Program-made: the position numbers and the translations under genes
The notes under the pieces: model-generated
Seen by the model: the letters and a program-made list of their open reading frames with translations, nothing else
Told to the model about the DNA's origin: nothing
Databases searched by the model: none
Origin: Candidatus Poseidoniales archaeon
GTDB lineage: Archaea; Thermoplasmatota; Poseidoniia; Poseidoniales; Poseidoniaceae
Reading direction: 5' to 3'
DNA length: 64,000 nt
NCBI GenBank assembly: GCA_003602645.1
Contig: QQSI01000040.1
Location: 4,152-68,151 of the forward strand
In this document: positions 2,085-50,514 of the stretch, in pieces
Position numbering within the stretch: position 1 is the first letter of the stretch
How the letters are laid out: each line of letters starts with the position of its first letter

Positions 2085-5000
2085 TCATGGTTGTCCTTGA
2101 TTTCTGTCAAGGTATTGCTGACCATAATGCACCCATTGTTCCATTGTCCAACCTGTGGGCAAGCCACCTTCGGGTACAGGTGGATGGGATGATTCGGTTG
2201 ATTGTTCGTGTTCAACTGGAGCTAAGGTCGCCTGCACATCAGGGATAGAGGCCGGTGGTCCGCTTGAGGCTGGCGGTCCAATTTGAACATCTTCTGGGAT
2301 TTCCTTTTCCAAGGTGAAGTCATCTTCATCATCTGAACGGGATCGCAAAAGGAGCACCATGAGGAGCGAGAAGGCAAGCAAAACCGCAATCCCGCCTGCG
2401 ACCACTTCAACCGAAGCACTTACGTCATCCACTGGGCGTTCTTCAAACTGGTATACCTGTGCGCCCTCCCAAGCTATTTCGCCGTCATGTGAAGCGATTA
2501 TGAATGTGATTTTCCCTTCCAATTGACCGCTAAGTCTGTGAAGCGTGCATGGGACATCTTGCAATTGAGGAGTGATATGTCCTGCACCAAACGTGAGATT
2601 TTGTCCATCCGCATCCATCAAGACACCATTGCATACGAGTTGCCATCCATCGGGGATTTGGGCTAGGAAAAGCATGTGTTCTGTTTGGCTTGAAACACTC
2701 GTCATGTTGACATAGAGTGGCACACCAGTCCCAGTGGCATGACTCATGGTATTCGGGACGCTAAGTTCTGCTTCGACGTGGCGTTGTTGATCGACAACGA
2801 TTAACGCCTCATGTTCCAATTCGTAAGGTTGCATTTCTGCATTCATGCCAGCAATAACTTGGAATGTAACGACAATTCTTGTGTTAAGAATCATGTCTTT
2901 GGGGAGAATCAGGTCGACTGTGAGAAGGGTGGATTGGTTTGCCAATAAAGTGATTGTCAGTGGTTCGTTCACAGCTTTTGTACTGCTGCTTAAACCGGTA
3001 GAAAAGAAGGCGACCATATCGGGTACGGGTGGAGAAGCAGATACACTTGCCAAGACGATGATTCCATCATCTGCTGCGTTACCAATATTGGTCAATGTAG
3101 CATTAATGCTGACCGTACCTCCAACAGTTGCCGATGTGGATTCAAATCCCCCTTCCAGTGAAGGTATTCGAACTGACGCCGTGATCGTATCAAAGGTTAC
3201 AATATTGTCTTGGGGTGTCAAATCCTCGAGGCCAAGGGCGTTTACGGCACTGATTGTGACGGTGTGGATTTCACTGGCTGCCTCTTCGCTTGGTACTTGG
3301 ACCCATAATTCTACGGTGGCGTTGTTCTCTAAATCATAAGGTGCAGAGAGTGAAATGGTTCCGTTATGCTGTGATCCATCCACTGTGATCCATGTGCTCC
3401 AGGCCATTGGGAGGTCAATTGTGGCGACGCTAGCCTCGATGGGCCCATTTCCATTATTGACCACTTCCAAGAGGATACGATTGGCAGTACCTGGTCGTAA
3501 TTTTGCAGGCGATTCTAAGAGTTCAATAGAGAGGTCGCTGATCGTTCGTACCACGATTGAATCAAAATCATCACCCGCGATGGTCATTCCACTTCGTTCA
3601 GAGGTAATTTGCGGGGTAATCGTTGGTGCTTTGTCACCGGCTTGGCCAGTTTCAGGTGCGGTTATTTTTGCTGTGAATGTGGTAGTGGCACCCGGATTGA
3701 TGACTGCATTGGGGCGCGTTGGCTGTTCAATGGTCCATAGCGATGAAGGATCATGAAGGATATTCATTGAAAAAATATCTTGACGAGAGGCATTATTCCA
3801 GATTGTAAATTCAACGGTTTTGGTTTCACCAGCATCGATCATCCAGTCCCTTGATGCTTGGTTATGGGTCATACCAACCTCGGCTTCGCTGATCATTGAT
3901 GCGGCAATATCAATGACTAACCCATGGGATTTAGCTGAATTATTTTGTGATTGGGCAAGCATGGTGAACGATACCACTGTGTCGGGAGTGGCTGTTGATG
4001 GAACTGTCATTGTTAGGCCAACCATCACCGGTGTGTCTGGCCGAACGAGGATTGATTCAGATTGAGTCCACGACAATTGAACCATCCATTGCTCTGGTAA
4101 ACTAAATTGATCTAGGGAGAGATCAAAAACATCGGTTGCGTCTCCGATGTTCCTTACCTCAACCTCAAACGGGCATGTGTAGCCGGGCGGGCATGCCGGG
4201 CGTGTTTCTGGTTGGATGACCAATGGTTCACGGTCCGGTAACACTTGGAATTGAACGGGTAATGTCGTGTTGATCGATTGATATTGACTTGATGTTCCTA
4301 TGAATGTCATTTGTTCGAATCCGGTCGTTGCGTTTTCATCCGGCTTAATTTTTACATCAATGGTTTTGCTTTCACCCGGGGCAAGCAACACCCCGGTTTG
4401 TTCGTTGATTGATACACCTGTTTGGTGAGCAAAATACACCTCCCAACCGCTCGGCAATTCATCGACAGAAGGAAGCACATAATCTGAAATGTTTCCATCA
4501 TTGGTTAAACTCACGCTCACCGTTCCCCATTCATTTGGTAGGGAACCCATTGTGGACACACCTGAGGACGAAAGCGCATATTCGATGGGCTTGACTTTTT
4601 GATCATACACAATGACAATGTCATCCAACCAAAAACCCACATCATTGACAGTTGCGTCGGTCGTAAGGATGAACCTAAATTTCGTTGAGGGTGAAAATCC
4701 ACTTTGTGGTGCGGGTATCAACGGTGATGATGTGCCTTGATTGTTGACAGAAAATGTTTGCCATGAGGCACCATCGATGAAGACTTGGTCGATGGTTCCC
4801 GAGATTGTAGCAAGTTCTGTGCTTGTTCCTGCGTTGTTTTGTACGTAGACTTTCAATTCATCACCGGGTTGGGAACTCCCAGTGTAAAAGAAGGAGAGCC
4901 CATTGGTCTGAAGCGGGGCCATCACCGCATCGGACATGTCGAAGGCAGGCGTTTCAAGAACACTTGTCGTTGATGCAGAATACGATGATGCTTCACCGTT

Positions 5001-5645
5001 ACCGGCATGACACGCAGTTCCTTGAGACAACGATGTGTCGGTGCTTAATCCCCATTCATTTGTCGTCGTCCACTGTGTGAGGTCGTTGCAATTAAAGTAA
5101 TGCGAAGCAACGGTGAAATGGCGGTTTCTTTGGTTATTTGAAGGGACGTCATCGAGGATCGTAGAAGTGCCGATCACCTGGATCGAGTGGTTTCCAGAGT
5201 AAGTAGGAGTAAAGGTAAACCCGATGGAATTTGATGCACCACCAGACAATCCTGCCATTTGTTGGGTGATGTTGATCATCTCAAAGAGCTGGTATTCATT
5301 GTGAAGAACCTTCAAGTTCACATCAATGGTACCTGATGGACTTGTCCCCTGGTTTTCTAACGTCACTTCAGCATAAATTGGGACGTTGACAACTGCGTCG
5401 ACGACATATAATTCAGCAGGTCGGTTGAATGCAGGAATTGGATGGTTCGAAGAAAACATACGGTATTTCGCTTCATCCACACTCGTTGTGTATGAAAAAG
5501 AGGTATTCGTTACTGTAACATCAACACCTGTGGCTTTCGCATTGCTCTGCAGAGGAGATTCTTCTTCAGGCGCCAATTGGGTGATTGGACTTGCAGTACC
5601 CATGACAAACAGAAGAACCAACAAAATTGCGGGGGCTCTTTTCAT
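2085..5645 (-). CDS. Giant anchored surface protein (adhesin/S-layer-like, about 1190-1210 aa)
   Basis: Uninterrupted 3.6-kb ORF. Signal-like N-terminus MKRAPAILLVLLFVMGTASP (start 5645; alternative ATGs at 5699 and 5717). Long Thr/Ser/Asn-rich beta-type modules with many N-x-S/T sequons. C-terminal TM anchor VVAGGIAVLLAFSLLMVLLLRSR, followed by an acidic/Pro-rich tail ending GLPTGWTMEQWVHYGQQYLD. Confidence 0.85.
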   Translation of the reverse strand: MKRAPAILLVLLFVMGTASPITQLAPEEESPLQSNAKATGVDVTVTNTSFSYTTSVDEAKYRMFSSNHPIPAFNRPAELYVVDAVVNVPIYAEVTLENQGTSPSGTIDVNLKVLHNEYQLFEMINITQQMAGLSGGASNSIGFTFTPTYSGNHSIQVIGTSTILDDVPSNNQRNRHFTVASHYFNCNDLTQWTTTNEWGLSTDTSLSQGTACHAGNGEASSYSASTTSVLETPAFDMSDAVMAPLQTNGLSFFYTGSSQPGDELKVYVQNNAGTSTELATISGTIDQVFIDGASWQTFSVNNQGTSSPLIPAPQSGFSPSTKFRFILTTDATVNDVGFWLDDIVIVYDQKVKPIEYALSSSGVSTMGSLPNEWGTVSVSLTNDGNISDYVLPSVDELPSGWEVYFAHQTGVSINEQTGVLLAPGESKTIDVKIKPDENATTGFEQMTFIGTSSQYQSINTTLPVQFQVLPDREPLVIQPETRPACPPGYTCPFEVEVRNIGDATDVFDLSLDQFSLPEQWMVQLSWTQSESILVRPDTPVMVGLTMTVPSTATPDTVVSFTMLAQSQNNSAKSHGLVIDIAASMISEAEVGMTHNQASRDWMIDAGETKTVEFTIWNNASRQDIFSMNILHDPSSLWTIEQPTRPNAVINPGATTTFTAKITAPETGQAGDKAPTITPQITSERSGMTIAGDDFDSIVVRTISDLSIELLESPAKLRPGTANRILLEVVNNGNGPIEASVATIDLPMAWSTWITVDGSQHNGTISLSAPYDLENNATVELWVQVPSEEAASEIHTVTISAVNALGLEDLTPQDNIVTFDTITASVRIPSLEGGFESTSATVGGTVSINATLTNIGNAADDGIIVLASVSASPPVPDMVAFFSTGLSSSTKAVNEPLTITLLANQSTLLTVDLILPKDMILNTRIVVTFQVIAGMNAEMQPYELEHEALIVVDQQRHVEAELSVPNTMSHATGTGVPLYVNMTSVSSQTEHMLFLAQIPDGWQLVCNGVLMDADGQNLTFGAGHITPQLQDVPCTLHRLSGQLEGKITFIIASHDGEIAWEGAQVYQFEERPVDDVSASVEVVAGGIAVLLAFSLLMVLLLRSRSDDEDDFTLEKEIPEDVQIGPPASSGPPASIPDVQATLAPVEHEQSTESSHPPVPEGGLPTGWTMEQWVHYGQQYLDRNQGQP

Positions 5646-5691
5646 GGCGCTCGCTCTGCTACACCGCTTCAAGGTATATGAGGAGAGTGGC

Positions 5692-6558
5692 TCATTCATT
5701 TTCCGAAGTTGATTCACGCCCTAGAGCATTTTCTATATCGTCTTCGGACTGTTTGAGTTTGACAGCATCTCGCTTCTCCTTTGCATTGGCTGCCCAATAC
5801 ACAGTAAAAGATGGGATAAGGACCATCGAGAAACACCCGGCAACGGCAGCGAGCGCCCACAAAAATTCAGTCGCAGCATCAACAGAAAACGGTTCTATGG
5901 TTGCGAATTCTTCATTCACCGTGGTGATGCTCATCGCAGGGGCTGTCGTTCGGTTGCCTCGTTCGATGATCTCGACCCTAATGAGCGAGGGTGAGTGCTC
6001 ATATTCAATGGCCTGTTCAGCCTTTACTTGCGCATCTTCAATGGTCTGGGCGTACACCGTACCGTTCGAACGACGCGCTGGGTCTGTGCTCGTTAGGGCA
6101 TTGATCCGTACATCGCCTCCATCCTCGGCAATGTAGGAGTGGGAGGTGTTCTTCTGGCAAGATTCTCTACAGCTAAACCCATCGGCATCCTCAGAACCCA
6201 AGAGTGGGTGACTGAACAAACCAGCGCCGTTAATCAAACGGACCTCGGCACCATTCGATACTTCTGTTGCGGTCAAATTAACCCACGTCAAATTTGCTCC
6301 ATTTGCCGGGACTGACCATGTCCAGGTTGTTGTGTTTTGATCGCCTTGGTAGATTCTGGTTGGTTCAATTTCCTGATGAAGGGTGGTGTTGGTATCGGTC
6401 TCGTAGAGGTAATAGGAAGGGGAGATCGTAGCACCGTAGACGGCGTACGAGAGCATGAAAATAAGTGTAAAGGAGAGCCCTAACAGGGTTCGTAGCAGGT
6501 TCGGGTTTTGAGCCAAAGCCTTCCTCATCGGGTTTAGGACGGACACGCCCTTCATCAA
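5692..6558 (-). CDS. Bitopic membrane/secreted protein, unknown function
   Basis: 288-aa ORF with an N-terminal TM (LLRTLLGLSFTLIFMLSYAVYG), an extracytoplasmic Thr/Asn-rich domain, a C-terminal TM (FLWALAAVAGCFSMVLIPSFTVYW) and a charged tail. Sits directly upstream of the giant surface gene. Confidence 0.6.
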   Translation of the reverse strand: MMKGVSVLNPMRKALAQNPNLLRTLLGLSFTLIFMLSYAVYGATISPSYYLYETDTNTTLHQEIEPTRIYQGDQNTTTWTWSVPANGANLTWVNLTATEVSNGAEVRLINGAGLFSHPLLGSEDADGFSCRESCQKNTSHSYIAEDGGDVRINALTSTDPARRSNGTVYAQTIEDAQVKAEQAIEYEHSPSLIRVEIIERGNRTTAPAMSITTVNEEFATIEPFSVDAATEFLWALAAVAGCFSMVLIPSFTVYWAANAKEKRDAVKLKQSEDDIENALGRESTSENE

Positions 6559-8223: not shown

Positions 8224-8454
8224 GTGGCTCTGCGAGTCAACTGGGACCGCACTCCTGTGTCTGTGCATCACGACAGCAAAGAAGTTCTTGAGTTGCTGAT
8301 TCTGCACCTAAGAAACAAACATGGTCTTCGCAAGCGCTCCATCGTGATGGAGGATCGTGAAGAAGGCCCTGGCCACCTGTTTTTTTTGTATCAACCGTGT
8401 GATCCACGGTGGATCGCTGAATTCGATATCACAAAATTTTCTGAGGAGGAATGA
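8224..8454 (+). CDS. Hypothetical protein (76 aa)
   Basis: GTG-initiated ORF whose stop overlaps the trmJ-like ATG (ATGA), which suggests translational coupling. No family recognised. Confidence 0.4.
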   Translation: MALRVNWDRTPVSVHHDSKEVLELLILHLRNKHGLRKRSIVMEDREEGPGHLFFLYQPCDPRWIAEFDITKFSEEE

Positions 8455-9296
8455 AGAAAATGGGTGACCGGAGCACACTTCCGTTGCCTCAATCCACCTA
8501 CGGCCTTGAAATTGTATTGATTGGCGTTTCTCATCCCGGCAACCTTGGTGCCGTTTGCCGGAGCATGTTGAATTATGGATTTGCTAACTTGAGGCTGGTC
8601 AATCCCAAATGTGAACCGGATCATATCGAGGCAAGAAACCGGGCCAAACATGCAGGGCGTATCCTCGACCAGTGCGCTGTGTACGATTCTCTTGATGCAG
8701 CAACAGAAGATGCCTCGATGATCATTGGCACGTCTGGAAAACGAGAAATTGGTTCGAAAACAAATTTTAGGCACTTCGTCTATCCATGGGAACTTTCAGA
8801 ACGCTTGGAAGGTTTTACCGGCAAAGTCTGTCTTGTATTCGGTGAAGAAGGAAAGGGGATGTCCACGGAAGACTTGGCGAAATGCGACTATCTTGTCACC
8901 CTCCCTACCTGGGAAGGCTACCCAATTGCCAACCTCTCTCACGCCGTGAATGCGTGTGTTTACGAATTACATCGGAACCGAGTAATTGCTCGACAAGGCA
9001 AGGAACAAGGGTTGCCCGACGTGGTCCCCCTTGAACGGTCGCTCAATCCTGAGTTGAAACAAATCCTTCATCAAACAGTTCGCGAATTAGCGAATGCCCT
9101 TCCCGGAAACGATGAGCGACGTCAGAGTTTTGGACAATCCCTTACGCGTTCAATCATGCGTTCTATGCCAACGCAAGGGGAGGCGACGAGAATGATTGGT
9201 GGTCTTCTTGATGCGACCACTGCAATCCAATACGTCGAGGGCAACGAGGAGTGGCGCAGCCAACGAAGGCGTAAAATCAGTCCTGAGGAAGAATGA
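8451..9296 (+). CDS. SpoU/TrmJ-family RNA 2'-O-methyltransferase
   Basis: LEIVLIGVSHPGNLGAVCRSMLNYGF..LRLV and VFGEEGKGMS...C.YLVTLP......ANLSHAVNACVYEL are SPOUT class motifs. A GAGGAGG Shine-Dalgarno-like sequence lies just upstream. Confidence 0.8.
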   Translation: MKKMGDRSTLPLPQSTYGLEIVLIGVSHPGNLGAVCRSMLNYGFANLRLVNPKCEPDHIEARNRAKHAGRILDQCAVYDSLDAATEDASMIIGTSGKREIGSKTNFRHFVYPWELSERLEGFTGKVCLVFGEEGKGMSTEDLAKCDYLVTLPTWEGYPIANLSHAVNACVYELHRNRVIARQGKEQGLPDVVPLERSLNPELKQILHQTVRELANALPGNDERRQSFGQSLTRSIMRSMPTQGEATRMIGGLLDATTAIQYVEGNEEWRSQRRRKISPEEE

Positions 9297-9302
9297 GTCC
9301 AT

Positions 9303-9752
9303 TCAACCGTGCCAAGAAGCAACGCTCTTTGGCGTTTCCCGAACGTGCATGGCGACCAAACGTAACCTGTTTCCATAGGCTGATTTGATGTGTGGCTCAA
9401 CTTGCTCGAAAGCCCACTTTGCGAGATTTTCTGCAGTCGGAACAAATGGTACCACGACTGTTCTGTGATCTGAGTCCATCATTTCGAGGGCTGCACGGGC
9501 TTGTTGATCGTGCTCGTACACCACAAAGGCATGGTCCACCACATCATGGACATAAACAGTAAGAATTTCACTCACATCTGAGAAATCCATCAACATCCCC
9601 TCTTCTGAGACACCATGTTCTTGAACAACATCGCCTTCAATTTCTGCTTCAAAGCGGTAGCGATGGCCGTGCATGTGGCGGCATTTGCTCTTGTGGTTTG
9701 GCACTCGGTGGCCAGTGTCAGTCTCAATGTATCTTCGTATTCGTGTGGTCAT
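9303..9752 (-). CDS. queD: 6-carboxy-5,6,7,8-tetrahydropterin synthase (QueD/PTPS family)
   Basis: HRVPNHKSKCRHMHGHRYRFEAEIEG carries the PTPS Zn-His/Cys motifs. Overlaps the queC stop by 4 nt. Confidence 0.85.
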   Translation of the reverse strand: MTTRIRRYIETDTGHRVPNHKSKCRHMHGHRYRFEAEIEGDVVQEHGVSEEGMLMDFSDVSEILTVYVHDVVDHAFVVYEHDQQARAALEMMDSDHRTVVVPFVPTAENLAKWAFEQVEPHIKSAYGNRLRLVAMHVRETPKSVASWHG

Positions 9753-10906
9753 TGTTCCAACTCCTCAAACTCTAACGAGGCTGAATTGATACAGTATCTC
9801 ATTCCGCCGTGTTCTCTTGGTCCATCGTTGAAAATATGTCCAAGATGTGCGTCGCATTGAGAACATCGAACTTCTGTTCGAATCATGCCATGCGTGCGAT
9901 CTTCAATCTGATGAATGGACGCCCTTGCATGCTCACTATGGAAGGATGGCCATCCGCAACCTGAATCAAATTTCATGGCTGATGTGAACAGGTGATGACC
10001 GCAACAAATGCAATTGTAGTTTCCACTTCTTTTCTCATTCCAATACGCGCCTGTAAACGCCCTTTCAGTGCCACTTTCTCTCGTGACATGGTATTGCAAT
10101 TGAGTTAATTTTTCCTTGTAGTATGCATCTTTGTGCTTTTGTTCTGTTTCTAAAGCAGCAGCCAAAACAATCTCCCACGGTTCAATGTATTCAATTGGAT
10201 CCACCAAATCAAGTGCGTTAAAGGCAAGAATTCGCTCCACGTCAGAACCGCTTCGCCCTGAACTTCTGCCATCCTGATCGGGGTTGTACGATGTGATGGT
10301 GTTTTCAAAAACTCGGTCGAAATTTAAACCAATTTTGTCACATGAAGCCAAAGCGTCTTTCAAAATGGTCACTTTATCGCCGTCGATGTATGGTAAGTGG
10401 AAGGATACGGTATGGCTGTCCCAGTTTCCAACTGCAAAAGCGTGTTCAAGGGCATGATAAAATTCTGGACGGCAATCGGGGTAGATGGCATGATCGCCTG
10501 AATGCACTCCTAAGGCAATTTCGACATTCGCCTTTTCTCGCTTGGCCACTGAAAGGGCGTATCCGTAGAGAATTGATGCAAAAATAGCGTTTCTATTTGG
10601 AACGACAGTGGATTTCATTTGTTCTTCTTCGTAGTGGCCTTCAGGAACCTTGATGCCTTCATTGATCAAGGACGATTCGAACAAGGTCATCGCTGAAGTT
10701 AAATCGACAATGTGGTGTTCAACGTAGAATCCTTTGTCCTGCAAGTATGCAATGTTGTTTGATGCTCTGGTCAACTCAACGCTGTGCTTTTGGCCGTAAT
10801 TATAGGAAATACAGCTTACATTTTTCCCCTCAGCCAAGGCGTTCAAGAGCAAAGAAGTAGAGTCCATCCCACCTGAAAGTGCCATGACAGTATGCTCAGC
10901 CATCAA
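9749..10906 (-). CDS. queC: QueC (7-cyano-7-deazaguanine synthase)-like domain fused to MsrB (methionine-R-sulfoxide reductase)
   Basis: The N-terminal region has the PP-loop ALSGGMDSTS, plus PNRNAIF and YPDCRPEF (QueC). Residues from about 262 to 385 (YHVTRESGTERAFTGAYWN, CICCGHHLF, GCGWPSF, CSQCDAHLGHIFNDGP, RYCINS) form a complete MsrB with both CxxC pairs and the catalytic Cys. Confidence 0.85.
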   Translation of the reverse strand: MMAEHTVMALSGGMDSTSLLLNALAEGKNVSCISYNYGQKHSVELTRASNNIAYLQDKGFYVEHHIVDLTSAMTLFESSLINEGIKVPEGHYEEEQMKSTVVPNRNAIFASILYGYALSVAKREKANVEIALGVHSGDHAIYPDCRPEFYHALEHAFAVGNWDSHTVSFHLPYIDGDKVTILKDALASCDKIGLNFDRVFENTITSYNPDQDGRSSGRSGSDVERILAFNALDLVDPIEYIEPWEIVLAAALETEQKHKDAYYKEKLTQLQYHVTRESGTERAFTGAYWNEKRSGNYNCICCGHHLFTSAMKFDSGCGWPSFHSEHARASIHQIEDRTHGMIRTEVRCSQCDAHLGHIFNDGPREHGGMRYCINSASLEFEELEQ

Positions 10907-11565
10907 TCAACACCCATCCATTTGTGTGTTTGGAGGCTTAGGCGCCATTGTGGATTTTCTTTGACCATTGCTTCTGTTTCAGCGAAATTTTTTCCGTTCC
11001 ACTCTACAGATTCTAATTCCATGTAACACGGTTGGAGGAAATGGTGTTTGAACCCTTGTCGCAATTCTTCGTACATCGATAGATCTTGACCTATATACAC
11101 ACACTTCAATTCGTCACCTGTACGTTGACGCAATTTCACTTCTGGATACATTTGATCTTTAGGTGACACACATATCCAATCCAAGAGTCCATCAGGGATT
11201 TCAATGGTTCCATTTGTTTCAACAGATAATGAGTACCCCCTTGCCTTGAGCAAACGATGCAACGGCCAAAGGTTCTGTAACATGGGTTCTCCACCAGTGA
11301 AGATGATTCGCTTACAATCAAACTTTGATAGTTCCCCAAGCAAGTCAATCGCATTCATAGTATTGAATGTTAGAAAATCTGTGTCGCACCATTCGCAACG
11401 GAGGTTACAATTTCCAAAACGAACGAAAACATGAGGAATCCCTGCGTGGTAACCTTCACCTTGAACTGAATGAAACACTTCGACGATTGGATACTCTGCA
11501 GCCAAATCGGTTGGATCATCAACGGGCGTGTCACCGGCACGAACACAGGAGTCGTTAACGGTCAT
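10903..11565 (-). CDS. queE: 7-carboxy-7-deazaguanine synthase (radical SAM QueE)
   Basis: EVFHSVQGEGYHAGIPHVFVRFGNCNLRCEWCDT is the QueE N-terminal CxxxCxxC radical-SAM motif. Overlaps queC by 4 nt. Confidence 0.85.
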   Translation of the reverse strand: MTVNDSCVRAGDTPVDDPTDLAAEYPIVEVFHSVQGEGYHAGIPHVFVRFGNCNLRCEWCDTDFLTFNTMNAIDLLGELSKFDCKRIIFTGGEPMLQNLWPLHRLLKARGYSLSVETNGTIEIPDGLLDWICVSPKDQMYPEVKLRQRTGDELKCVYIGQDLSMYEELRQGFKHHFLQPCYMELESVEWNGKNFAETEAMVKENPQWRLSLQTHKWMGVD

Positions 11566-11574
11566 ATTCTCACC

Positions 11575-12150
11575 TCAAAGTGGACGTGAATGAATCAATT
11601 GCATGAGTTCTTGCCTTGCTTCTGGTCGTTCAAAAAACACCCCTCGCATGGCCGATGTGGTCATGATTGAATTTTGCTTTTTGACCCCTCTGCATCGCAT
11701 ACATCCATGCTTCGCTTCAATAATGACGGCAGCACCCAACGGTGCTAGATGAGATTCTAAATCATCAGCAACGCCCTTCGTGATACGTTCCTGATTTTGC
11801 AAGCGTTGAGCATGGAGGTCCACAATCCGTGCTAATTTACTGATCCCCACAATCCGCTCAACTGGGATGTACGCAACGTGAGCACGCCCAGTGAATGGCT
11901 GCAGGTGATGCTCACAAGTGGAATGAAATTCAATATCCCTCAGAAGAACAATTCCATCGTAACCCTCTCCATTGAAGGTTGAATCAAGAAGTTCAGCGGC
12001 ATCCATTTGGTAACCACCAAAAATTTCATCCCATGAATCAATCACGCGTTTTGGTGTTTTTGCTAGCCCTTCACGATTTGGTTCAGGTTCAAGGTAGCCA
12101 AGGAGGGTATGCACTGCCTGTTCTGCTTCGTCTCGTGTCACCATCGTCAA
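11575..12150 (-). CDS. folE: GTP cyclohydrolase I
   Basis: FHSTCEHHLQPFTGRAHVAYIP...VGISKLARIVD..A.RLQNQERIT are FolE active-site strings. Confidence 0.9.
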   Translation of the reverse strand: MTMVTRDEAEQAVHTLLGYLEPEPNREGLAKTPKRVIDSWDEIFGGYQMDAAELLDSTFNGEGYDGIVLLRDIEFHSTCEHHLQPFTGRAHVAYIPVERIVGISKLARIVDLHAQRLQNQERITKGVADDLESHLAPLGAAVIIEAKHGCMRCRGVKKQNSIMTTSAMRGVFFERPEARQELMQLIHSRPL

Positions 12151-12317
12151 TCGCCTCCACGCCCATGCCTTGCGTCAATCTCATCCAGTTGGTCTAGCAA
12201 TTTTCTGCACGCCGTTCGAACTGCATCGGCAAGACTGACAAATTTGTGCTCGTCTCCGACATGCTTACGGAGATCTTCAACGAGCTCAGCAGGCATGTCC
12301 AGGGAGATTTTGGGCAT
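12147..12317 (-). CDS. Ribbon-helix-helix (CopG/Arc-like) DNA-binding protein
   Basis: MPKISLDMPAELVEDLRKHVGDEHKFVSLADAVRTACRKLL fits the RHH beta-strand plus two-helix pattern. Its stop overlaps the folE ATG (ATGA). Start is ATG 12317 or ATG 12341. Confidence 0.55.
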   Translation of the reverse strand: MPKISLDMPAELVEDLRKHVGDEHKFVSLADAVRTACRKLLDQLDEIDARHGRGGD

Positions 12318-12464
12318 AGTTAACGCACCCGATGGTCCCATATAAGTATTCTCTGAGTATTACCAGAAGAATACATTGGCCCCTGTTGTTGGTGTTCGTT
12401 TTCGTCAGATTTCATTCAATGTTAAGCCAATGTTCAAGGCATCCCGTGGCCGACACGGTCACTG

Positions 12465-23718: not shown

Positions 23719-25611
23719 TCACTCCACGAACATGTCTTCCTGGTAGCCCGTGATGATATCCCCTGTACCATCTTCCTCGATTGTCACGGTTTCGTCTTCG
23801 TCATCGAACTCTATGATTGTTCCAAAGACCTCCTCGTCCTCAAGTGTAAGACCGATGTGTGAGCCAATATCGATTTCTCCTTCCCCTTCATCATCCTCAT
23901 CTTCCTCAGGTTCATCTGACTCGTCATGAGATTCATCATCCAACTCTTCATCTTCGAAATCCTCTTCGAGAGCCTCTTCCATTTCTTCTTCGAGGTCCCC
24001 ATCATCATCATTATCTTCAGATTCGGACGAAGCATCTGCTTGATCGTCTTGGACTTCCTTCATTGCCTTAGCGCGTGCACGCCAGCTAGGCATGAGCGCT
24101 AGATGCATGTAAAGTGAACCAGCTAATCCTGCTGCGCCAAGTACCATAAACAAAATACCGTCCCAATAGAAACCAGCAGGCATCGAACTTGCTTCACCAC
24201 TTAGGGGCGTTAACGAGTTCTTACAGTCGCCTTCCTGAATTGCTGGATCACAAGGGTAAGAATCACCTTCGGCAAGACCCGCAGGAGGGAGTAAATTGCC
24301 TTTGGTCTCTAGCTCAATTGGGCCGCCAGTTCCATCGACAATGACACCGAATCCATTCACGACCCACACGGCAATGAAAAGGCCAAATGCTAAGTGAATC
24401 AACGGCCATACATATTCGTTCCATTGCTTCCCCATCATGCGCTTTTGCATATCAGTTGGGAAGGGTTTGGTTGGTTTGCTGATGACAGCTCTTTCATCCG
24501 TTGCTTCATCGGCATCTGCCAAATTTTCTAAAGCTGTGATGAATTCTATCATGTCCACCGTTCGATCGTTGTCATCATCAACTTCAGACAGGAATTCTTC
24601 GATATCCTTGTGACCGATTTCATCATCAAAGAGCTTGTTCAATTCGTTCATTAGTTCGACAACATCGACGCGCCCATTGGCATCTCTGTCAATGCTCTTG
24701 AAGAATTGAGCTGGCGAGGTTTCCATTTCATCCATGGCATCAGCGATTTTGCGAATGAGCGAAACCTCCTCGATGCTTTCTTCTTCTGAAGGATCTTCAT
24801 CGGACGCCTCATCTTCGTCCATTGATTCTTCGCCGTTTTCCTCTTCTGAATCCAATGTTTCCTCTTCGACCACCTCTTCGTGTTCTGATTCAGAATCTTC
24901 AGATTCGTCATCATCCTGGGAATCTTGGATTTCCTCTTCATCAAGGTTTGATTCTGTTTGAACTTCTTCGTCAGGTTCGCCTTCATCCTCTGTTTCAATT
25001 TCCTCTTCTGGATCATCATCCACTTGGATTTCGGGATCGGTTTCCACCTCATCGTCTGAGTCATTGTCTTCTTCGTTTTCCGAATCTTCTTCCATTGCAT
25101 CCTCATCTTCAGAGGTTGTTGAATGATCCATTTTTTCGTCTTCTGGCAAGTCATCTCCGGTGATGGTTTTATGCAACTCAGCAAGGTCAATCCTTCCATC
25201 TCCGTCAGCATCGATTGTCTCAATGAGGCGCTCAACTTGAGATGGTGGCAAATCTGCTAGATTGAGGCTCAACAGTCCTGACTTCAATTCACTTGAGTCG
25301 ATTTGACCATCGCCATCCTTGTCAAATTTATTGAACAGCATCGGAATTGTAATCCCTGTTGTTGCCAACCAATTGCGCAGCACATCAACGACGTCGTCGG
25401 CGATAAAAACTGTACCACAGTGGCTACATTTTGTGGAATCTAAAGGCACGAGGCCACCGCATGCACCGCACTCTCCGAGGGCTTCATCGGATACACCGGA
25501 AAAAGAAATATTACATTCAGGACATTTGGTTGAATCGAGGGGAATTACTGCTCTGCAAGCACCACATTCTCCTGTAGCAACTTCTTCAGTCTTGTCTTCG
25601 GACATGGGCAC
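23719..25611 (-). CDS. Membrane protein with a double zinc ribbon, two EF-hand pairs, poly-acidic tracts and two TM helices
   Basis: Zinc ribbons: CGACRAVIPLDSTKCPECN and CGACGGLVPLDSTKCSHCG. Four canonical 12-residue EF loops: DKDGDGQIDSSE, DADGDGRIDLAE, DRDANGRVDVVE, DDDNDRTVDMIE. TM helices lie at about residues 400-425 and 483-507. The D/E tracts are more than 60% acidic. Confidence 0.8.
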   Translation of the reverse strand: MPMSEDKTEEVATGECGACRAVIPLDSTKCPECNISFSGVSDEALGECGACGGLVPLDSTKCSHCGTVFIADDVVDVLRNWLATTGITIPMLFNKFDKDGDGQIDSSELKSGLLSLNLADLPPSQVERLIETIDADGDGRIDLAELHKTITGDDLPEDEKMDHSTTSEDEDAMEEDSENEEDNDSDDEVETDPEIQVDDDPEEEIETEDEGEPDEEVQTESNLDEEEIQDSQDDDESEDSESEHEEVVEEETLDSEEENGEESMDEDEASDEDPSEEESIEEVSLIRKIADAMDEMETSPAQFFKSIDRDANGRVDVVELMNELNKLFDDEIGHKDIEEFLSEVDDDNDRTVDMIEFITALENLADADEATDERAVISKPTKPFPTDMQKRMMGKQWNEYVWPLIHLAFGLFIAVWVVNGFGVIVDGTGGPIELETKGNLLPPAGLAEGDSYPCDPAIQEGDCKNSLTPLSGEASSMPAGFYWDGILFMVLGAAGLAGSLYMHLALMPSWRARAKAMKEVQDDQADASSESEDNDDDGDLEEEMEEALEEDFEDEELDDESHDESDEPEEDEDDEGEGEIDIGSHIGLTLEDEEVFGTIIEFDDEDETVTIEEDGTGDIITGYQEDMFVE

Positions 25612-47289: not shown

Positions 47290-48210
47290 TCAGGACTCAT
47301 CGGAGCCAATAAATTGCATGTCTCCGGGCTTGAACGCTGGATCAATGAGTCCGATTTCTTGGCCTTCTGTGATAAATTGCCGGATGGAAGCGCGTCCTTC
47401 TTTCTTGTAATCGATGGTGCGGTCATTGACGTACATGCTCACAAATTCCTTATTGGTGTCATCATCAATGCCTCTGCCCCACTTTTTGGCAAATTCAAGT
47501 GCTTCAGCAGGTGATTTCAGAGCATACTCAATGCTCATTTTGGTGTACTTAGTGATGTCTTCCATTGCTTGTGCTCCAAGATCTCGACGGACGACATTGC
47601 CTCCAAGCGGCATAGGCCAACCGCCGGTTCGTTCGTTCCACCAAACACCAAGATCAATATGCACGTGAAGGTCGTGATCAACATAGGTCAGTTGGCCTTC
47701 GTGAATGATGAGACCACTCAAGTAGGTTCCATCGAGGATGCGTGGGATGATTTCATCGAAGGGAACAACGGCAACTTCGCAGTCACCCCATGCCAGACGC
47801 AGCCCCATGTAGGCACTTGTTTTGAGGCCAGGGACGGCGATGATGTTGCTTCGGACATCTGATTCGCTTGCGCCCTGCATTGAAACAACCATTGGACCAT
47901 ACCCCTCACCCATCGAGGCACCACAATTCATCAAAGCATAATTCTCGGAAATTTCTGGGAATGCGTGGATGGAGACTGCTGAAACTTCAAGGTCGCAATT
48001 CATTGCGCGGTGGTTGAGTGTTTCGATGTCTTGCAGTTCGTGTACGAAGTGGTAGCCAGGAGTTGGAAAGGCACCAGTGGTCATTGCGTGGAACATAAAG
48101 GCGTCATCTGGGTCCGGAGAGTGTCCGATTCGAACAATTTTGTTGCCGTCTTCATCAAGGGGTAATTGAGCCACCATGATGCCTCGACTGGCGCGCCCTT
48201 GATGAACCAA
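47290..48210 (-). CDS. MqnA/MqnD-family protein (MqnD-like, futalosine menaquinone pathway)
   Basis: VRIGHSPDPDDAFMFHAM, ELQDIETLN, EVSAVSIHAF, Y.LMNCGASMGEGYGPMVV and GLIIHEGQLTY fit the MqnD/VitK2-biosynthesis periplasmic-binding-fold pattern. Start may be the internal ATG 48177. Confidence 0.7.
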   Translation of the reverse strand: MVHQGRASRGIMVAQLPLDEDGNKIVRIGHSPDPDDAFMFHAMTTGAFPTPGYHFVHELQDIETLNHRAMNCDLEVSAVSIHAFPEISENYALMNCGASMGEGYGPMVVSMQGASESDVRSNIIAVPGLKTSAYMGLRLAWGDCEVAVVPFDEIIPRILDGTYLSGLIIHEGQLTYVDHDLHVHIDLGVWWNERTGGWPMPLGGNVVRRDLGAQAMEDITKYTKMSIEYALKSPAEALEFAKKWGRGIDDDTNKEFVSMYVNDRTIDYKKEGRASIRQFITEGQEIGLIDPAFKPGDMQFIGSDES

Positions 48211-48345
48211 CCGCTAATTTTTCCTGATTTCTTCTTTTCCTGCATTGGTGATGCATTCACCGATTTGTTTTCAGTGTTGATTGATTCATCTGGGTCCAAG
48301 GGGAGTCGTGGTTTGGGCGTCAAGGCAACTGGTTGCATTGCATTT

Positions 48346-50514
48346 ATGCTGTTGGTGATGCTCTCCACGCCAGTGGCCTCGAGCGCGTCAACCATTTCGT
48401 TCACAGGCACCACGACCGTTGAAACCACCGACGGATCCTCGGCCTTAGCTATTGATTCGGACATGAACTACCTCGCAAGCGGTTACGATGACCACATGGC
48501 CATCATGTGGTTGGATAATCTATCGCTGATTGATATCATTGAAGTGGATCGACCCGTGGAATCACTGGAGTTTTCACCGGATGGCTCTCTCTTGGCTATT
48601 GCCATATCAGGGTCGGAAACAAAGGAGGACACCATTCAATTATTTGATGTCGAATCCATGACTCTGAGCCAAAAGCAACAATCGGCTAACGCTCGCCCAG
48701 TGGACATTGCCTGGTCGCCAGATGGGTTGCTACTTGCGGTTCCAAACGCGAATAATGGTATTGATTTAATCCGTATTTCTGATATGGAAATAGAGCGGAG
48801 TTTGACTGGCGAACACAATACAGACGTGACTTGTATTGGATTCACAAGCAACGGTGGGCATGTTATCAGCGGTGATGAATCGGGGCGAATGGTGATGTGG
48901 AACGTCGATGGTACTCCGACAGCAAAAAAATGGGAGTTTGGAAATGAACTCAAAACATGTTCTTTTGACCCAACCGACACACGCATCGCATCGCTTACGG
49001 TCGACGGTGCATTGAACACGCTTTCTTTTTCCGGTGGTGATTTACAAAGCGCTCAATTTACCTCAGGAGGTGGCTTGAGTTGGTCGTATGAAGGGACCTA
49101 CATACATTTGACAGAAAATGGCGATGCTCCACGATTGCTGACATTGGATGCCTCCACATTTGAACAAGTGGAATCGACCTACATGGCTCACCAAGTGTTG
49201 GATATTGCCACGATCGAAAATCAATACGGTTTGGTTCAAGAATTCTATGCAGCAACCAACACCCTCCATTTGGCGAGGTATGGTAGCCATGCTGTCCCCG
49301 AAGGAATGGGGGTTGCTGGAGCAGACCTCGATGGTGATGGCATACCGGATTCACTCGACGATGATGATGACGGTGATGCGATCTTTGATCAATGGGATAC
49401 GTATTGCGGTGAGGTTGAAACAGATTGTGCACGCTCCCCCCATGAAGACCACATTCGTTCGGTTTCGATTCAATTGAACGCCACACATATGACGATTAAT
49501 GACAGGATCAAATTGGACATCGTCCTATCCTCTTCAATCAGAAATATGTCGAGAATTTCTATTATTGAGGATGCTCAGCTCAGTGGGAGCGAAACCGAAT
49601 TGTTTGCCCAATCCGTTTGTGCTAACCATGATGAGAGCAGAATCCTTGAACAATGGAAAGATACACTGATGCTTTCAGAAGGCCAATTGGAAGGTGGAAT
49701 AGTAACCTGTGCCGTCAGCGAAGGCATGACGCTCAGAGCACAAAATGATTTCAAAACTCACATCGGTGTTGAATACACGATTTCGTTCAACCTTTCCTCT
49801 GCACCGATTTTCCCGTTCACAGTTGCATTCGAAGAGCAACCTATCGCCACTGATGCCTCATTATCCCATCTTGCAGAAATGCATCCTATTCATGTGACGC
49901 TTTCTGCAAAGGGAGCGAATGATGTCGAATTGTCTCCATGGTGGACCACAGAATCTCCTTTGGAACTCACTTTGGAGGAACGCGTGGTCAAAGAACCAAC
50001 CTTGACACAGAAAGGAGTGGATTTATTCGCGAATTATCCAATTCTTTTTGTCTTCGTTCTTGCCTTCCTTGCTGGAGGCATCGTGCTCGTATTGAGGACA
50101 AAAAACACAATGGGTATGGATCTCAACATCTTTGACGAAGAGGATGATGAGCCGAGTCGCGATGAAGACGAGGATGAATCAAGCACCTCAATCGAAGAGG
50201 AAGCTTCACTTGAAGTCCCTCTTGCCGAGCCGGAACAAGCAAAACCCGTCGAATCAAAAACGAATGTAAGGGACACAACGACCGACCATCCAGTTCAGAC
50301 CAAAAAACGCAGGAAAGTGAGCCAACGCACCTCCAGAGAGGGCCCGATTACAACAGTGAAGAGAAAGCGCTTGGATGGTGGAGAAGAACCTCCTGTTCAG
50401 AAAAGAGCAACCAGCAAAAAGCGAATTGTCAAACCCAACACGTCGACAAAGCGGAAGACAAGAAGGGTCGTAACTCAATCCGACAAAGAAGAAGACACTT
50501 CACCAGGCGAATGA
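48346..50514 (+). CDS. Anchored surface protein with WD40-like beta-propeller repeats and an Asp-rich Ca-binding-type motif
   Basis: Signal-like MLLVMLSTPVASSAS. The start is uncertain: the track ATG 48166 overlaps the convergent... divergent gene on the other strand, and TTG 48313 is possible. WD-like repeats (SLEFSPDGSLLA, DIAWSPDGLLLA, CIGFTSNGGHVISGDESGRMVMWN). DLDGDGIPDSLDDDDDGDAIFDQWD. C-terminal TM PILFVFVLAFLAGGIVLVL, then an acidic and a Lys/Arg-rich tail. Confidence 0.7.
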   Translation: MLLVMLSTPVASSASTISFTGTTTVETTDGSSALAIDSDMNYLASGYDDHMAIMWLDNLSLIDIIEVDRPVESLEFSPDGSLLAIAISGSETKEDTIQLFDVESMTLSQKQQSANARPVDIAWSPDGLLLAVPNANNGIDLIRISDMEIERSLTGEHNTDVTCIGFTSNGGHVISGDESGRMVMWNVDGTPTAKKWEFGNELKTCSFDPTDTRIASLTVDGALNTLSFSGGDLQSAQFTSGGGLSWSYEGTYIHLTENGDAPRLLTLDASTFEQVESTYMAHQVLDIATIENQYGLVQEFYAATNTLHLARYGSHAVPEGMGVAGADLDGDGIPDSLDDDDDGDAIFDQWDTYCGEVETDCARSPHEDHIRSVSIQLNATHMTINDRIKLDIVLSSSIRNMSRISIIEDAQLSGSETELFAQSVCANHDESRILEQWKDTLMLSEGQLEGGIVTCAVSEGMTLRAQNDFKTHIGVEYTISFNLSSAPIFPFTVAFEEQPIATDASLSHLAEMHPIHVTLSAKGANDVELSPWWTTESPLELTLEERVVKEPTLTQKGVDLFANYPILFVFVLAFLAGGIVLVLRTKNTMGMDLNIFDEEDDEPSRDEDEDESSTSIEEEASLEVPLAEPEQAKPVESKTNVRDTTTDHPVQTKKRRKVSQRTSREGPITTVKRKRLDGGEEPPVQKRATSKKRIVKPNTSTKRKTRRVVTQSDKEEDTSPGE

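Follow-up and report, generated by a model that had tools for sequence, protein, structure and literature searches.

The window analysed here is a 64-kb stretch of contig QQSI01000040.1 (assembly GCA_003602645.1, positions 4,152 to 68,151 of the forward strand) from a Candidatus Poseidoniales archaeon, and our subject is a gene within it that joins a QueC-like domain, in which all four zinc-binding cysteines of canonical QueC are replaced, to a methionine-R-sulfoxide reductase of the MsrB type. The gene lies in an operon for the synthesis of 7-cyano-7-deazaguanine (preQ0), where a small open reading frame (ORF) for a ribbon-helix-helix (RHH)-like protein of 64 amino acids is followed on the same strand by folE, queE, queC-msrB and queD (Table 1). 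The gap between folE and queE is 9 nucleotides (nt), queE and queC overlap by 1 nt, with an ATG at 10903 on the queE stop codon, and queC-msrB and queD overlap by 4 nt (ATGA). This ATG is probably the true start of the fusion gene, giving a protein of 384 amino acids, which is the length of most of its homologs. An initial annotation, made from the nucleotide sequence and a list of its ORFs, had read the gene as a QueC-like domain followed by a complete MsrB; this is borne out by profile matches to PF06508, the Pfam family of QueC (residues 6-231, E 3e-42, 144.9 bits against a cutoff of 22), to PF01641 and to TIGR00357 for MsrB (178.5 bits, above the cutoff of 113.05). The closest named relatives belong to Candidatus Poseidoniaceae, a family of Marine Group II. 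The automatic name given to the fused protein by NCBI is only 'peptide-methionine (R)-S-oxide reductase MsrB' (protein clusters P0015, P0069, P0072 and P0089), and the name given to such proteins by JGI is 'QueC'.

Table 1. Features of the preQ0 operon and of the queC-msrB fusion gene, in window coordinates.
Feature	Position	Strand	Evidence or remark
SpoU-family RNA methyltransferase, convergent, downstream of queD	8451..9296	+	PF00588, E 1.7e-24
queD, final operon gene (6-carboxytetrahydropterin synthase)	9303..9752	-	PF01242, E 6e-26; same place in other Poseidoniales
queC-msrB fusion ORF	9749..10906	-	385 amino acids from the listed TTG start
MsrB (SelR) domain, residues 267-381	9764..10108	-	PF01641, E 1.5e-50; TIGR00357
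RYCIN with catalytic Cys372	9785..9799	-	62 of 62 fused homologs
MsrB zinc CxxC pair 2, C348/C351	9854..9865	-	62 of 62 fused homologs
DSGCGWPSF with resolving Cys317	9941..9967	-	62 of 62 fused homologs
MsrB zinc CxxC pair 1, C299/C302	10001..10012	-	62 of 62 fused homologs
C-terminal helix of the QueC domain, residues 241-266, also linker to MsrB	10109..10186	-	Predicted helix 244-266, pLDDT 90-95
QueC domain with PP-loop ATP-pyrophosphatase fold, residues 1-258 (extra C-terminal helix included)	10133..10906	-	PF06508; AlphaFold2 model
Former zinc-knuckle loop, SYNPDQDGRSSGRSGSD	10241..10291	-	Ligand positions Ser206, Ser216, Ser219, Asp222; essential Tyr207 kept
YPDC, residues 142-145	10472..10483	-	70 of 70 homologs
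VPNRN, residues 102-106 (VPxRN motif)	10589..10603	-	70 of 70 homologs
YGQKHSVE, residues 37-44 (YxQxHxxE motif)	10775..10798	-	Y, Q, H and E in 70 of 70 homologs
PP-loop SGGMDS, residues 11-16	10859..10876	-	SGGxDS in 70 of 70 homologs
queE (radical-SAM 7-carboxy-7-deazaguanine synthase, Cx14CxxC type)	10903..11565	-	PF04055 match; TIGR04508 best match
folE (GTP cyclohydrolase I, type IA)	11575..12150	-	PF01227, E 7e-67; NF006825, 236 bits
RHH-like ORF of 64 amino acids, PKISLDMPAELVEDLRKHV..., operon head	12147..12341	-	Weak Pfam RHH_1 match, E 0.25

According to a survey of the family from 2026 that included mutagenesis (PMC13329287), canonical QueC corresponds to Cluster 1 of PF06508 and is recognised by the motifs SGGxDS, YxQxHxxE, VPxRN and YPDC, a zinc motif, an essential tyrosine beside the first zinc ligand, and the residues L75 and K165; Y35 of YxQxHxxE, R99 of VPxRN, Y131 of YPDC and Y189 are essential in the E. 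coli enzyme. The conservation of these motifs was scored over 70 aligned homologs (the overall identity across many species is 65-92%). Each of the four catalytic motifs is present in every one of them, and so are Y207, L80 and K178, which align with E. coli Y189, L75 and K165. In an AlphaFold2 model computed from the 70 homologs (mean predicted local distance difference test, pLDDT, 88.5; predicted template-modelling score, pTM, 0.78), the N-terminal half matches the solved QueC structures 3BL5 (TM 0.79) and 2PG3 (TM 0.74), with a Foldseek probability of 1.00. The sole canonical feature to fail is the zinc motif, C(x)8CxxCxxC, which is absent from the fusion protein. Because this motif alone fails, we regard the domain as a variant of QueC rather than as a canonical member, and one that probably works like QueC.

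The motifs and the gene context also bear on a change of chemistry, which had been put forward as one option in the initial annotation. The reaction could end at the amide intermediate (ADG), the substrate could be a different 7-deazapurine or carboxylate, or the enzyme could act on a macromolecule, as is the case for QatC and Cap9. Evolution has put the QueC scaffold to new uses several times (PMC13329287), the domain scores just under the cutoff of the NCBIfam equivalog for QueC (TIGR00364, 137.7 bits against 150.3), and the viral members of the group, described below, likely serve DNA rather than tRNA modification and may differ in their end products. However, the substrate-pocket and ATP motifs that separate canonical from repurposed clusters are all kept and invariant, extensions of the QatC type are absent from both termini, and the gene stands where queC is expected beside a full set of folE, queD and queE, the locus having no further queC. 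A changed function is suggested neither by the motifs nor by the gene context, and we consider it improbable.

HMMER alignments to 3BL5 and 2PG3 end before or at the first zinc ligand, and the register of the loop was set by closer relatives that retain the cysteines. The nearest of these read TCYNPDxxGRSCGKCGSCxER, against TSYNPDQDGRSSGRSGSDVER in the fusion protein, with the same loop length and the same flanking residues. This alignment places two serines, a further serine and an aspartate exactly at the ligand positions (Table 1), as had been annotated by eye against a B. subtilis QueC motif; the motif as quoted there came close to the true 3BL5 sequence. Among the 70 homologs, S206 and D222 never vary, position 219 is either serine or threonine, and position 216 is serine in 64 and otherwise asparagine, aspartate, glutamine or alanine. 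The invariance of S206 and D222 indicates, at the level of sequence conservation, that the replacement residues are under constraint. Two metagenomic QueC representatives (P0231 and P0267) carry C-C-C-D at the ligand columns and may be intermediates between the four-cysteine form and the form without these cysteines, hereafter Cys-less.

Among the conserved residues of the relatives compared, no substitute cluster of cysteines and histidines specific to Cys-less QueC was found. The QueC domain has only three cysteines, C32, C145 and C189, of which C145 is part of the universal YPDC motif, and the other two vary within the Cys-less clade. A GxHxGDH motif is common to the Cys-less and the Cys-bearing relatives. 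An alternative metal site, built from C32, C145 and C189 or from H135, D138 and H139, was therefore rejected as a specific compensation for the lost ligands.

The Cys-less domain carries an additional helix at its C-terminus (Table 1), which is predicted to be amphipathic (W244xxVLxxA) and in which W244, V247, L248 and A251 are invariant. A tail of at least 15 residues past the DPxxY motif was found in 137 of 139 Cys-less sequences, as against 12 of 64 Cys-bearing relatives, in counts that ignore shared ancestry; the median tail of the Cys-bearing relatives is five residues. The segment S219-G-S-D222 lies at the N-terminus of a predicted helix (residues 220-231), and serine and aspartate are good helix-capping residues.

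We surveyed the locus in 42 species-level genomes (Poseidoniales, MGIII and Thermoplasmatota), all of which have the order folE-queE-queC-[msrB]-queD. queC and msrB are fused in 25 of these genomes and adjacent as separate genes in 10, mostly in different frames and 2-122 nt apart; the remaining seven have no msrB at the locus, and in six of them queC leads directly into queD. Fused proteins also make up 99 of the 120 nearest protein clusters at 90% identity (JGI, ENA, NCBI, Logan and Tara assemblies). The initial annotation had named a sequencing frameshift between two genes as a possible source of the fusion; given its recurrence in so many independent assemblies, the fusion is real, and a frameshift or assembly artefact was rejected. 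The same data bear on the possibility that the QueC half is a decaying, inactive remnant carried on a functional MsrB. Such a remnant would fit the NCBI name, which mentions MsrB only, and the loss of the zinc hallmark, but it is contradicted by catalytic motifs intact in 70 of 70 homologs, by the 65-92% identity maintained across many species and by stand-alone Cys-less QueCs that are equally conserved. Hence, a remnant, like an artefact, is highly improbable.

The fusions are of two junction types. In the long type, to which the protein of this window belongs, the N-terminal helix of MsrB is kept (...HKDAYYKEKLTxLQYxVTRxxGTE), and the short type reads ...LKAQLRHYVMKENGTE. In the presumed ancestral operon of Poseidoniales, msrB stands between queC and queD, often 2-6 nt past the queC stop codon. 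The origin of the fusion is probably mundane: msrB would have inserted itself ahead of queD, just behind queC, and the frames would then have been joined by small indels in at least two ways. The fusion would ensure co-expression of the two domains, and QueC would not depend on it to dispense with zinc. Two loci of the survey call for separate mention. A 9.5-kb contig binned as 'Phycisphaerae bacterium' (L015, NZFX01000056.1) carries the full Poseidoniales operon with fused queC-msrB and is probably mis-binned, and in locus L022 the queC frame is broken after 87 codons by a frameshift or an assembly error.

In all Poseidoniales loci examined, fused or unfused, QueC is Cys-less. The initial annotation had asked whether the fusion and the Cys-less form covary; the Cys-less state also occurs in all unfused Poseidoniales loci, in planctomycetes and in most of the closest viral loci. 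Compensation of the lost QueC zinc by the zinc of the fused MsrB, another option of the initial annotation, was discarded on the same grounds: Cys-less QueC stands without a fused MsrB in 17 of the 42 genomes, and likewise in marine Pirellulaceae and 76 of the best 80 viral loci. As to whether the Cys-less form is simply the common archaeal QueC with known activity, it is indeed universal in Poseidoniales, but a described activity was not found in the searchable literature.

The MsrB half of the model superimposes on the MsrB structures 3CEZ, 6QA0 and 6SYM with a root-mean-square deviation of 1.0-1.1 Å over about 123 residues and a TM of up to 0.93. It is 51-54% identical to form 1 (zinc) MsrB such as those of B. 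pseudomallei (3CEZ), E. coli (6SYM) and human MsrB3 (6QA0), with which it shares both CxxC pairs, the resolving cysteine in GCGWPSF and the catalytic cysteine in RYCIN. Because the catalytic, the resolving and the four zinc cysteines are kept in every fused homolog, MsrB appears to be a working passenger and no relic, and the C-terminal domain would be an ordinary zinc-containing, thioredoxin-recycled methionine-R-sulfoxide reductase. It differs from known form 1 enzymes in being the C-terminal part of a QueC fusion, whereas the fusions that we found described in the literature are with MsrA. PilB is an MsrB fusion with a thioredoxin domain.

A functional MsrB raises the question of whether the fusion itself is meaningful. 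MsrB could repair methionines of QueC (M14, M97) or of other pathway enzymes, or couple preQ0 synthesis to the redox state, and the loss of the four-cysteine zinc site and the recruitment of msrB could be a single adaptation to an oxidising, zinc-poor, sunlit ocean. In favour of such a link, msrB is fixed inside the preQ0 operon in 35 of the 42 genomes and fused in two junction forms, the pTM of the two-domain model would suggest a defined arrangement, and both M14, in the PP-loop SGGMDS, and M97 are invariant. In addition, zinc starvation leaves the zinc site of canonical QueC undermetalated in A. baumannii (PMC12458113), and nitrosative stress targets this site in Salmonella (PMC6094482). 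On the other hand, SGGMDS also occurs in 54 Cys-bearing relatives and in MsrB-free viral QueCs, which weakens M14 as a reason for the fusion, and Cys-less QueC is found without msrB in seven Poseidoniales loci, in Pirellulaceae and in viruses. Nor is a general zinc-sparing strategy, or an avoidance of zinc thiolates, supported, because FolE, QueD and MsrB keep their zinc ligands: the four cysteines of MsrB are retained, and so are the CEHH...C of FolE and the HxH of QueD in the operon translations, which we take to be the zinc sites of these two enzymes. We therefore regard a functional role of the fusion as rather unlikely, with the repeated fusion and the fixed position of msrB as the observations that might speak for it.

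Cys-less QueC is also found outside the archaea. Fourteen metagenome-assembled genomes of marine Pirellulaceae/Planctomycetota carry a stand-alone Cys-less queC, on contigs of up to 221 kb with clearly bacterial neighbours (loci L038-L049, L053, L055, L057 and L063; for example, L047, 9989-10798). These proteins are 52-59% identical to the QueC of the window, and most have S-H-T-D at the ligand columns; other que genes were not found near queC in the planctomycete loci examined. This likeness between planctomycete and archaeal proteins suggests a transfer across domains, possibly by way of viruses. The QueCs of Alteromonas, Pseudoalteromonas and Idiomarina (40-44% identity) have kept the cysteines.

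A collection of viral sequences gave at least 600 matches, of which the best 80 were examined for the ligand columns; QueC is both Cys-less and unfused in 76 of these, and no MsrB was found in the viral or planctomycete loci examined. Two flavours were seen. The first is Marine Group II-like (S-S/N/D-S/T-D); the second and commoner one, 'type 2', reads TSYKPxxxGxSDYKSASSVERIEAF, with S-D-S-S at the ligand columns and tyrosine and alanine in place of the two glycines (loci L092-L160; for example, L128, 6001-6795). The only cultured phages with a Cys-less QueC are the Baltic Flavobacterium phages vB_FspM_immuto, which are of type 2 (NC_055915.1, 18607-19488, L161). Homologs of folE, queD or queE lie within about 6 kb of queC in 56 of 81 viral loci. 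In one tailed-phage contig, which encodes a baseplate wedge protein (L082), a TGT/DpdA-like gene (32-1897; GDSGGFQ; PF01702, E 7e-6, just under the cutoff) is the immediate upstream neighbour of an S-S-S-D QueC with 60% identity to that of the window, and this arrangement points to a 7-deazaguanine DNA modification made with a zinc-less QueC. Other viral contigs carry phage replication genes.

A neighbour-joining tree computed without the loop columns did not resolve the number of cysteine losses: the S-D-S-S group was monophyletic in only 45% of bootstrap replicates, and the S-x-[ST]-D group did not form a clade. Several close relatives of QueC carry inteins or an endonuclease domain. Inteins, some with LAGLIDADG endonuclease domains, split P0122, P0123, P0136 and P0149, of which P0122 is Cys-less and the others Cys-bearing, at a site that lies near the YPDC motif by matched ranges; an intein in P0143 lies further downstream. 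P0134 is a Cys-bearing relative of 456 amino acids with an N-terminal HNH endonuclease domain.

This distribution allows for a broader and more tentative scenario, in which the loss of the four-cysteine zinc site was adaptive and spread horizontally via marine viruses to Poseidoniales and Pirellulaceae, which are cellular lineages unrelated to each other. The helix would have come first, followed by the S-x-[S/T]-D and S-D-S-S forms (the latter with a change of glycine to tyrosine); the driver would have been the liability of a thiolate-zinc site in a zinc-poor, photo-oxidising surface ocean, and msrB would have been drawn in and repeatedly fused as a repair or redox module. We hold this scenario to be possible, though unlikely in its entirety.

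The explanation that we favour, with a probability of roughly 0.65, is that the gene encodes a zinc-independent preQ0 synthase in which the added helix and polar replacement residues brace the structure. On this view, the fusion to MsrB, encoded next to queC in the operon, serves co-expression, and the preQ0 supplied by the enzyme is most plausibly destined for archaeosine. The QueC domain would convert 7-carboxy-7-deazaguanine to 7-cyano-7-deazaguanine with the use of ATP, which is the final chemical step of the folE-queE-queC-queD pathway, and its product would most likely feed archaeosine in tRNA. The zinc of QueC would have been structural, and in the metal-free Cys-less enzyme that we envisage, hydrogen-bonding and helix-capping residues, together with the C-terminal amphipathic helix, would have taken its place. 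That QueC works without its structural zinc had been one of the options in the initial annotation, and it is the best supported of them, by inference from the motifs kept in 70 of 70 homologs, from the queC slot in a conserved operon and from the viral preQ0 clusters.

Several observations weigh against this explanation. The family survey takes the zinc motif to be a hallmark of QueC and holds zinc to be necessary for function (PMC13329287), a QatC mutant in which the four cysteines are changed to alanine is inactive (PMC13639016), and the TIGR00364 score stays just short of its cutoff. The association between the helix and the loss of cysteines rests on counts that are phylogenetically non-independent, and some close Cys-bearing relatives (P0124, L089 and L094) already carry the helix. 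Since these have both the cysteines and the helix, the helix may have come first, making the zinc dispensable.

Compared with canonical QueC (3BL5, 2PG3), the protein has the same PP-loop fold, the same SGGxDS, YxQxHxxE, VPxRN and YPDC motifs, the tyrosine after the first ligand position and the partners folE, queD and queE. It differs in the replacement of the C(x)8CxxCxxC ligands by S/S/S/D, in an extra C-terminal helix of about 25 amino acids and in the fusion to MsrB, and it belongs to a subfamily with GxHxGDHxIYPDC and SGG[ML]DS, where canonical QueC has GVCETDFSGYPDC and SGGQDS. The Cys-bearing members of the same subfamily (chromosomal genes beside queE in Alteromonas, Pseudoalteromonas and Idiomarina; viral and metagenomic sequences such as P0124, P0131, L089 and L104) are 40-54% identical and share the active-site motifs and a loop of the same length and sequence (TxYNPDxxGRSxGKxGSxxER); unlike the window's protein, they keep the four cysteines, and most end within about five residues of DPxxY, without the C-terminal helix.

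Other known systems resemble the protein in part. Gat-QueC, found in some Crenarchaeota and in phage 9g, is likewise a natural fusion of QueC, to a glutamine amidotransferase, in the archaeal and phage deazaguanine pathway, but its partner supplies the amide nitrogen for archaeosine, whereas MsrB is without a known role in deazaguanine chemistry. FolE2 (which stands in for FolE) and QueD2 are precedents for a zinc-requiring step of queuosine or preQ0 synthesis being covered by a form without that zinc need; however, they are Zur-regulated paralogs beside the zinc form, whereas here the sole queC at the locus is Cys-less and FolE, QueD and MsrB keep their zinc ligands. The QueC-family defence enzymes QatC and Cap9 share the QueC-like core and the PP-loop. 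Their zinc site, however, is retained, and function is lost when it is mutated to alanine; they also carry large extensions, are devoid of the canonical substrate motifs and have protein N-termini as their targets. Searches of the available literature for a QueC without zinc, for a fusion of QueC with MsrB or for archaeosine in Poseidoniales returned nothing relevant. Both domains are familiar in themselves; what is new is a large, conserved and mainly oceanic clade in which every zinc ligand of QueC is replaced, the co-occurring helix, and the series of queC-msrB adjacency and fusion.

The neighbouring genes are in keeping with the profile families listed in Table 1, at scores that are in part low: queE matches TIGR04508 with E 4e-42 and 144.4 bits, under the cutoff of 240, and queD reaches 80.1 bits against TIGR03367, under the cutoff of 89.25. 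The RHH-like ORF at the head of the operon was found by tblastn directly upstream of folE in 44 loci (Poseidoniales-type loci and two labelled otherwise) at 65-100% identity, a conservation that exceeds that of QueC, and it may encode a regulator of the preQ0 operon. Downstream, the SpoU-family methyltransferase has a C-terminal extension of about 100 amino acids and is convergent to queD in most Poseidoniales loci, so that two RNA-modification functions are kept adjacent. No second queC or msrB was found within the 64-kb window. No arcTGT or DpdA was found in the window or the archaeal loci, as judged by Pfam scans of 20 larger ORFs of the window and by a TGT motif scan of all sequences gathered for the analysis, whose single hit was the DpdA-like gene of the viral contig L082.

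The window is otherwise an ordinary piece of archaeal chromosome, with genes for the ribosomal proteins S19e, L31e and S17e, methionyl-tRNA synthetase, histidine utilisation and methylmalonyl-CoA mutase. Three of its proteins are unusual for an archaeon: one of 1210 amino acids with CARDB and Ig-like domains, probably at the cell surface (2085-5717, minus strand), one of 630 amino acids with EF-hand calcium-binding motifs (23719-25611, minus strand), and a WD40 beta-propeller protein of 782 amino acids (48166-50514, plus strand).

The zinc hallmark of QueC is thus not universal, as a large, conserved clade replaces all four ligands and keeps the catalytic motifs, and no queC other than the Cys-less form was seen in the preQ0 operon of this archaeal order, which is among the most abundant in the ocean. 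Because the protein scores below the TIGR00364 cutoff and is named 'MsrB' at NCBI, automated pathway reconstructions would score Poseidoniales as lacking queC. The queC/msrB series, in which msrB is absent, adjacent or fused in two ways, provides a natural system for asking whether fusions of operon neighbours carry function. The occurrence of the Cys-less variant in marine viruses, archaea and planctomycetes suggests an exchange of deazaguanine-pathway genes between viruses and their hosts as well as across domains; if the tentative scenario of an adaptive, virus-borne spread were true, this would be the first zinc-independent QueC, and a cross-domain, virus-linked replacement of a metal site in a core tRNA-modification pathway. 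If the proposed activity is true, the zinc of QueC would be structural and replaceable, and the clade would represent a natural design for a zinc-free enzyme.

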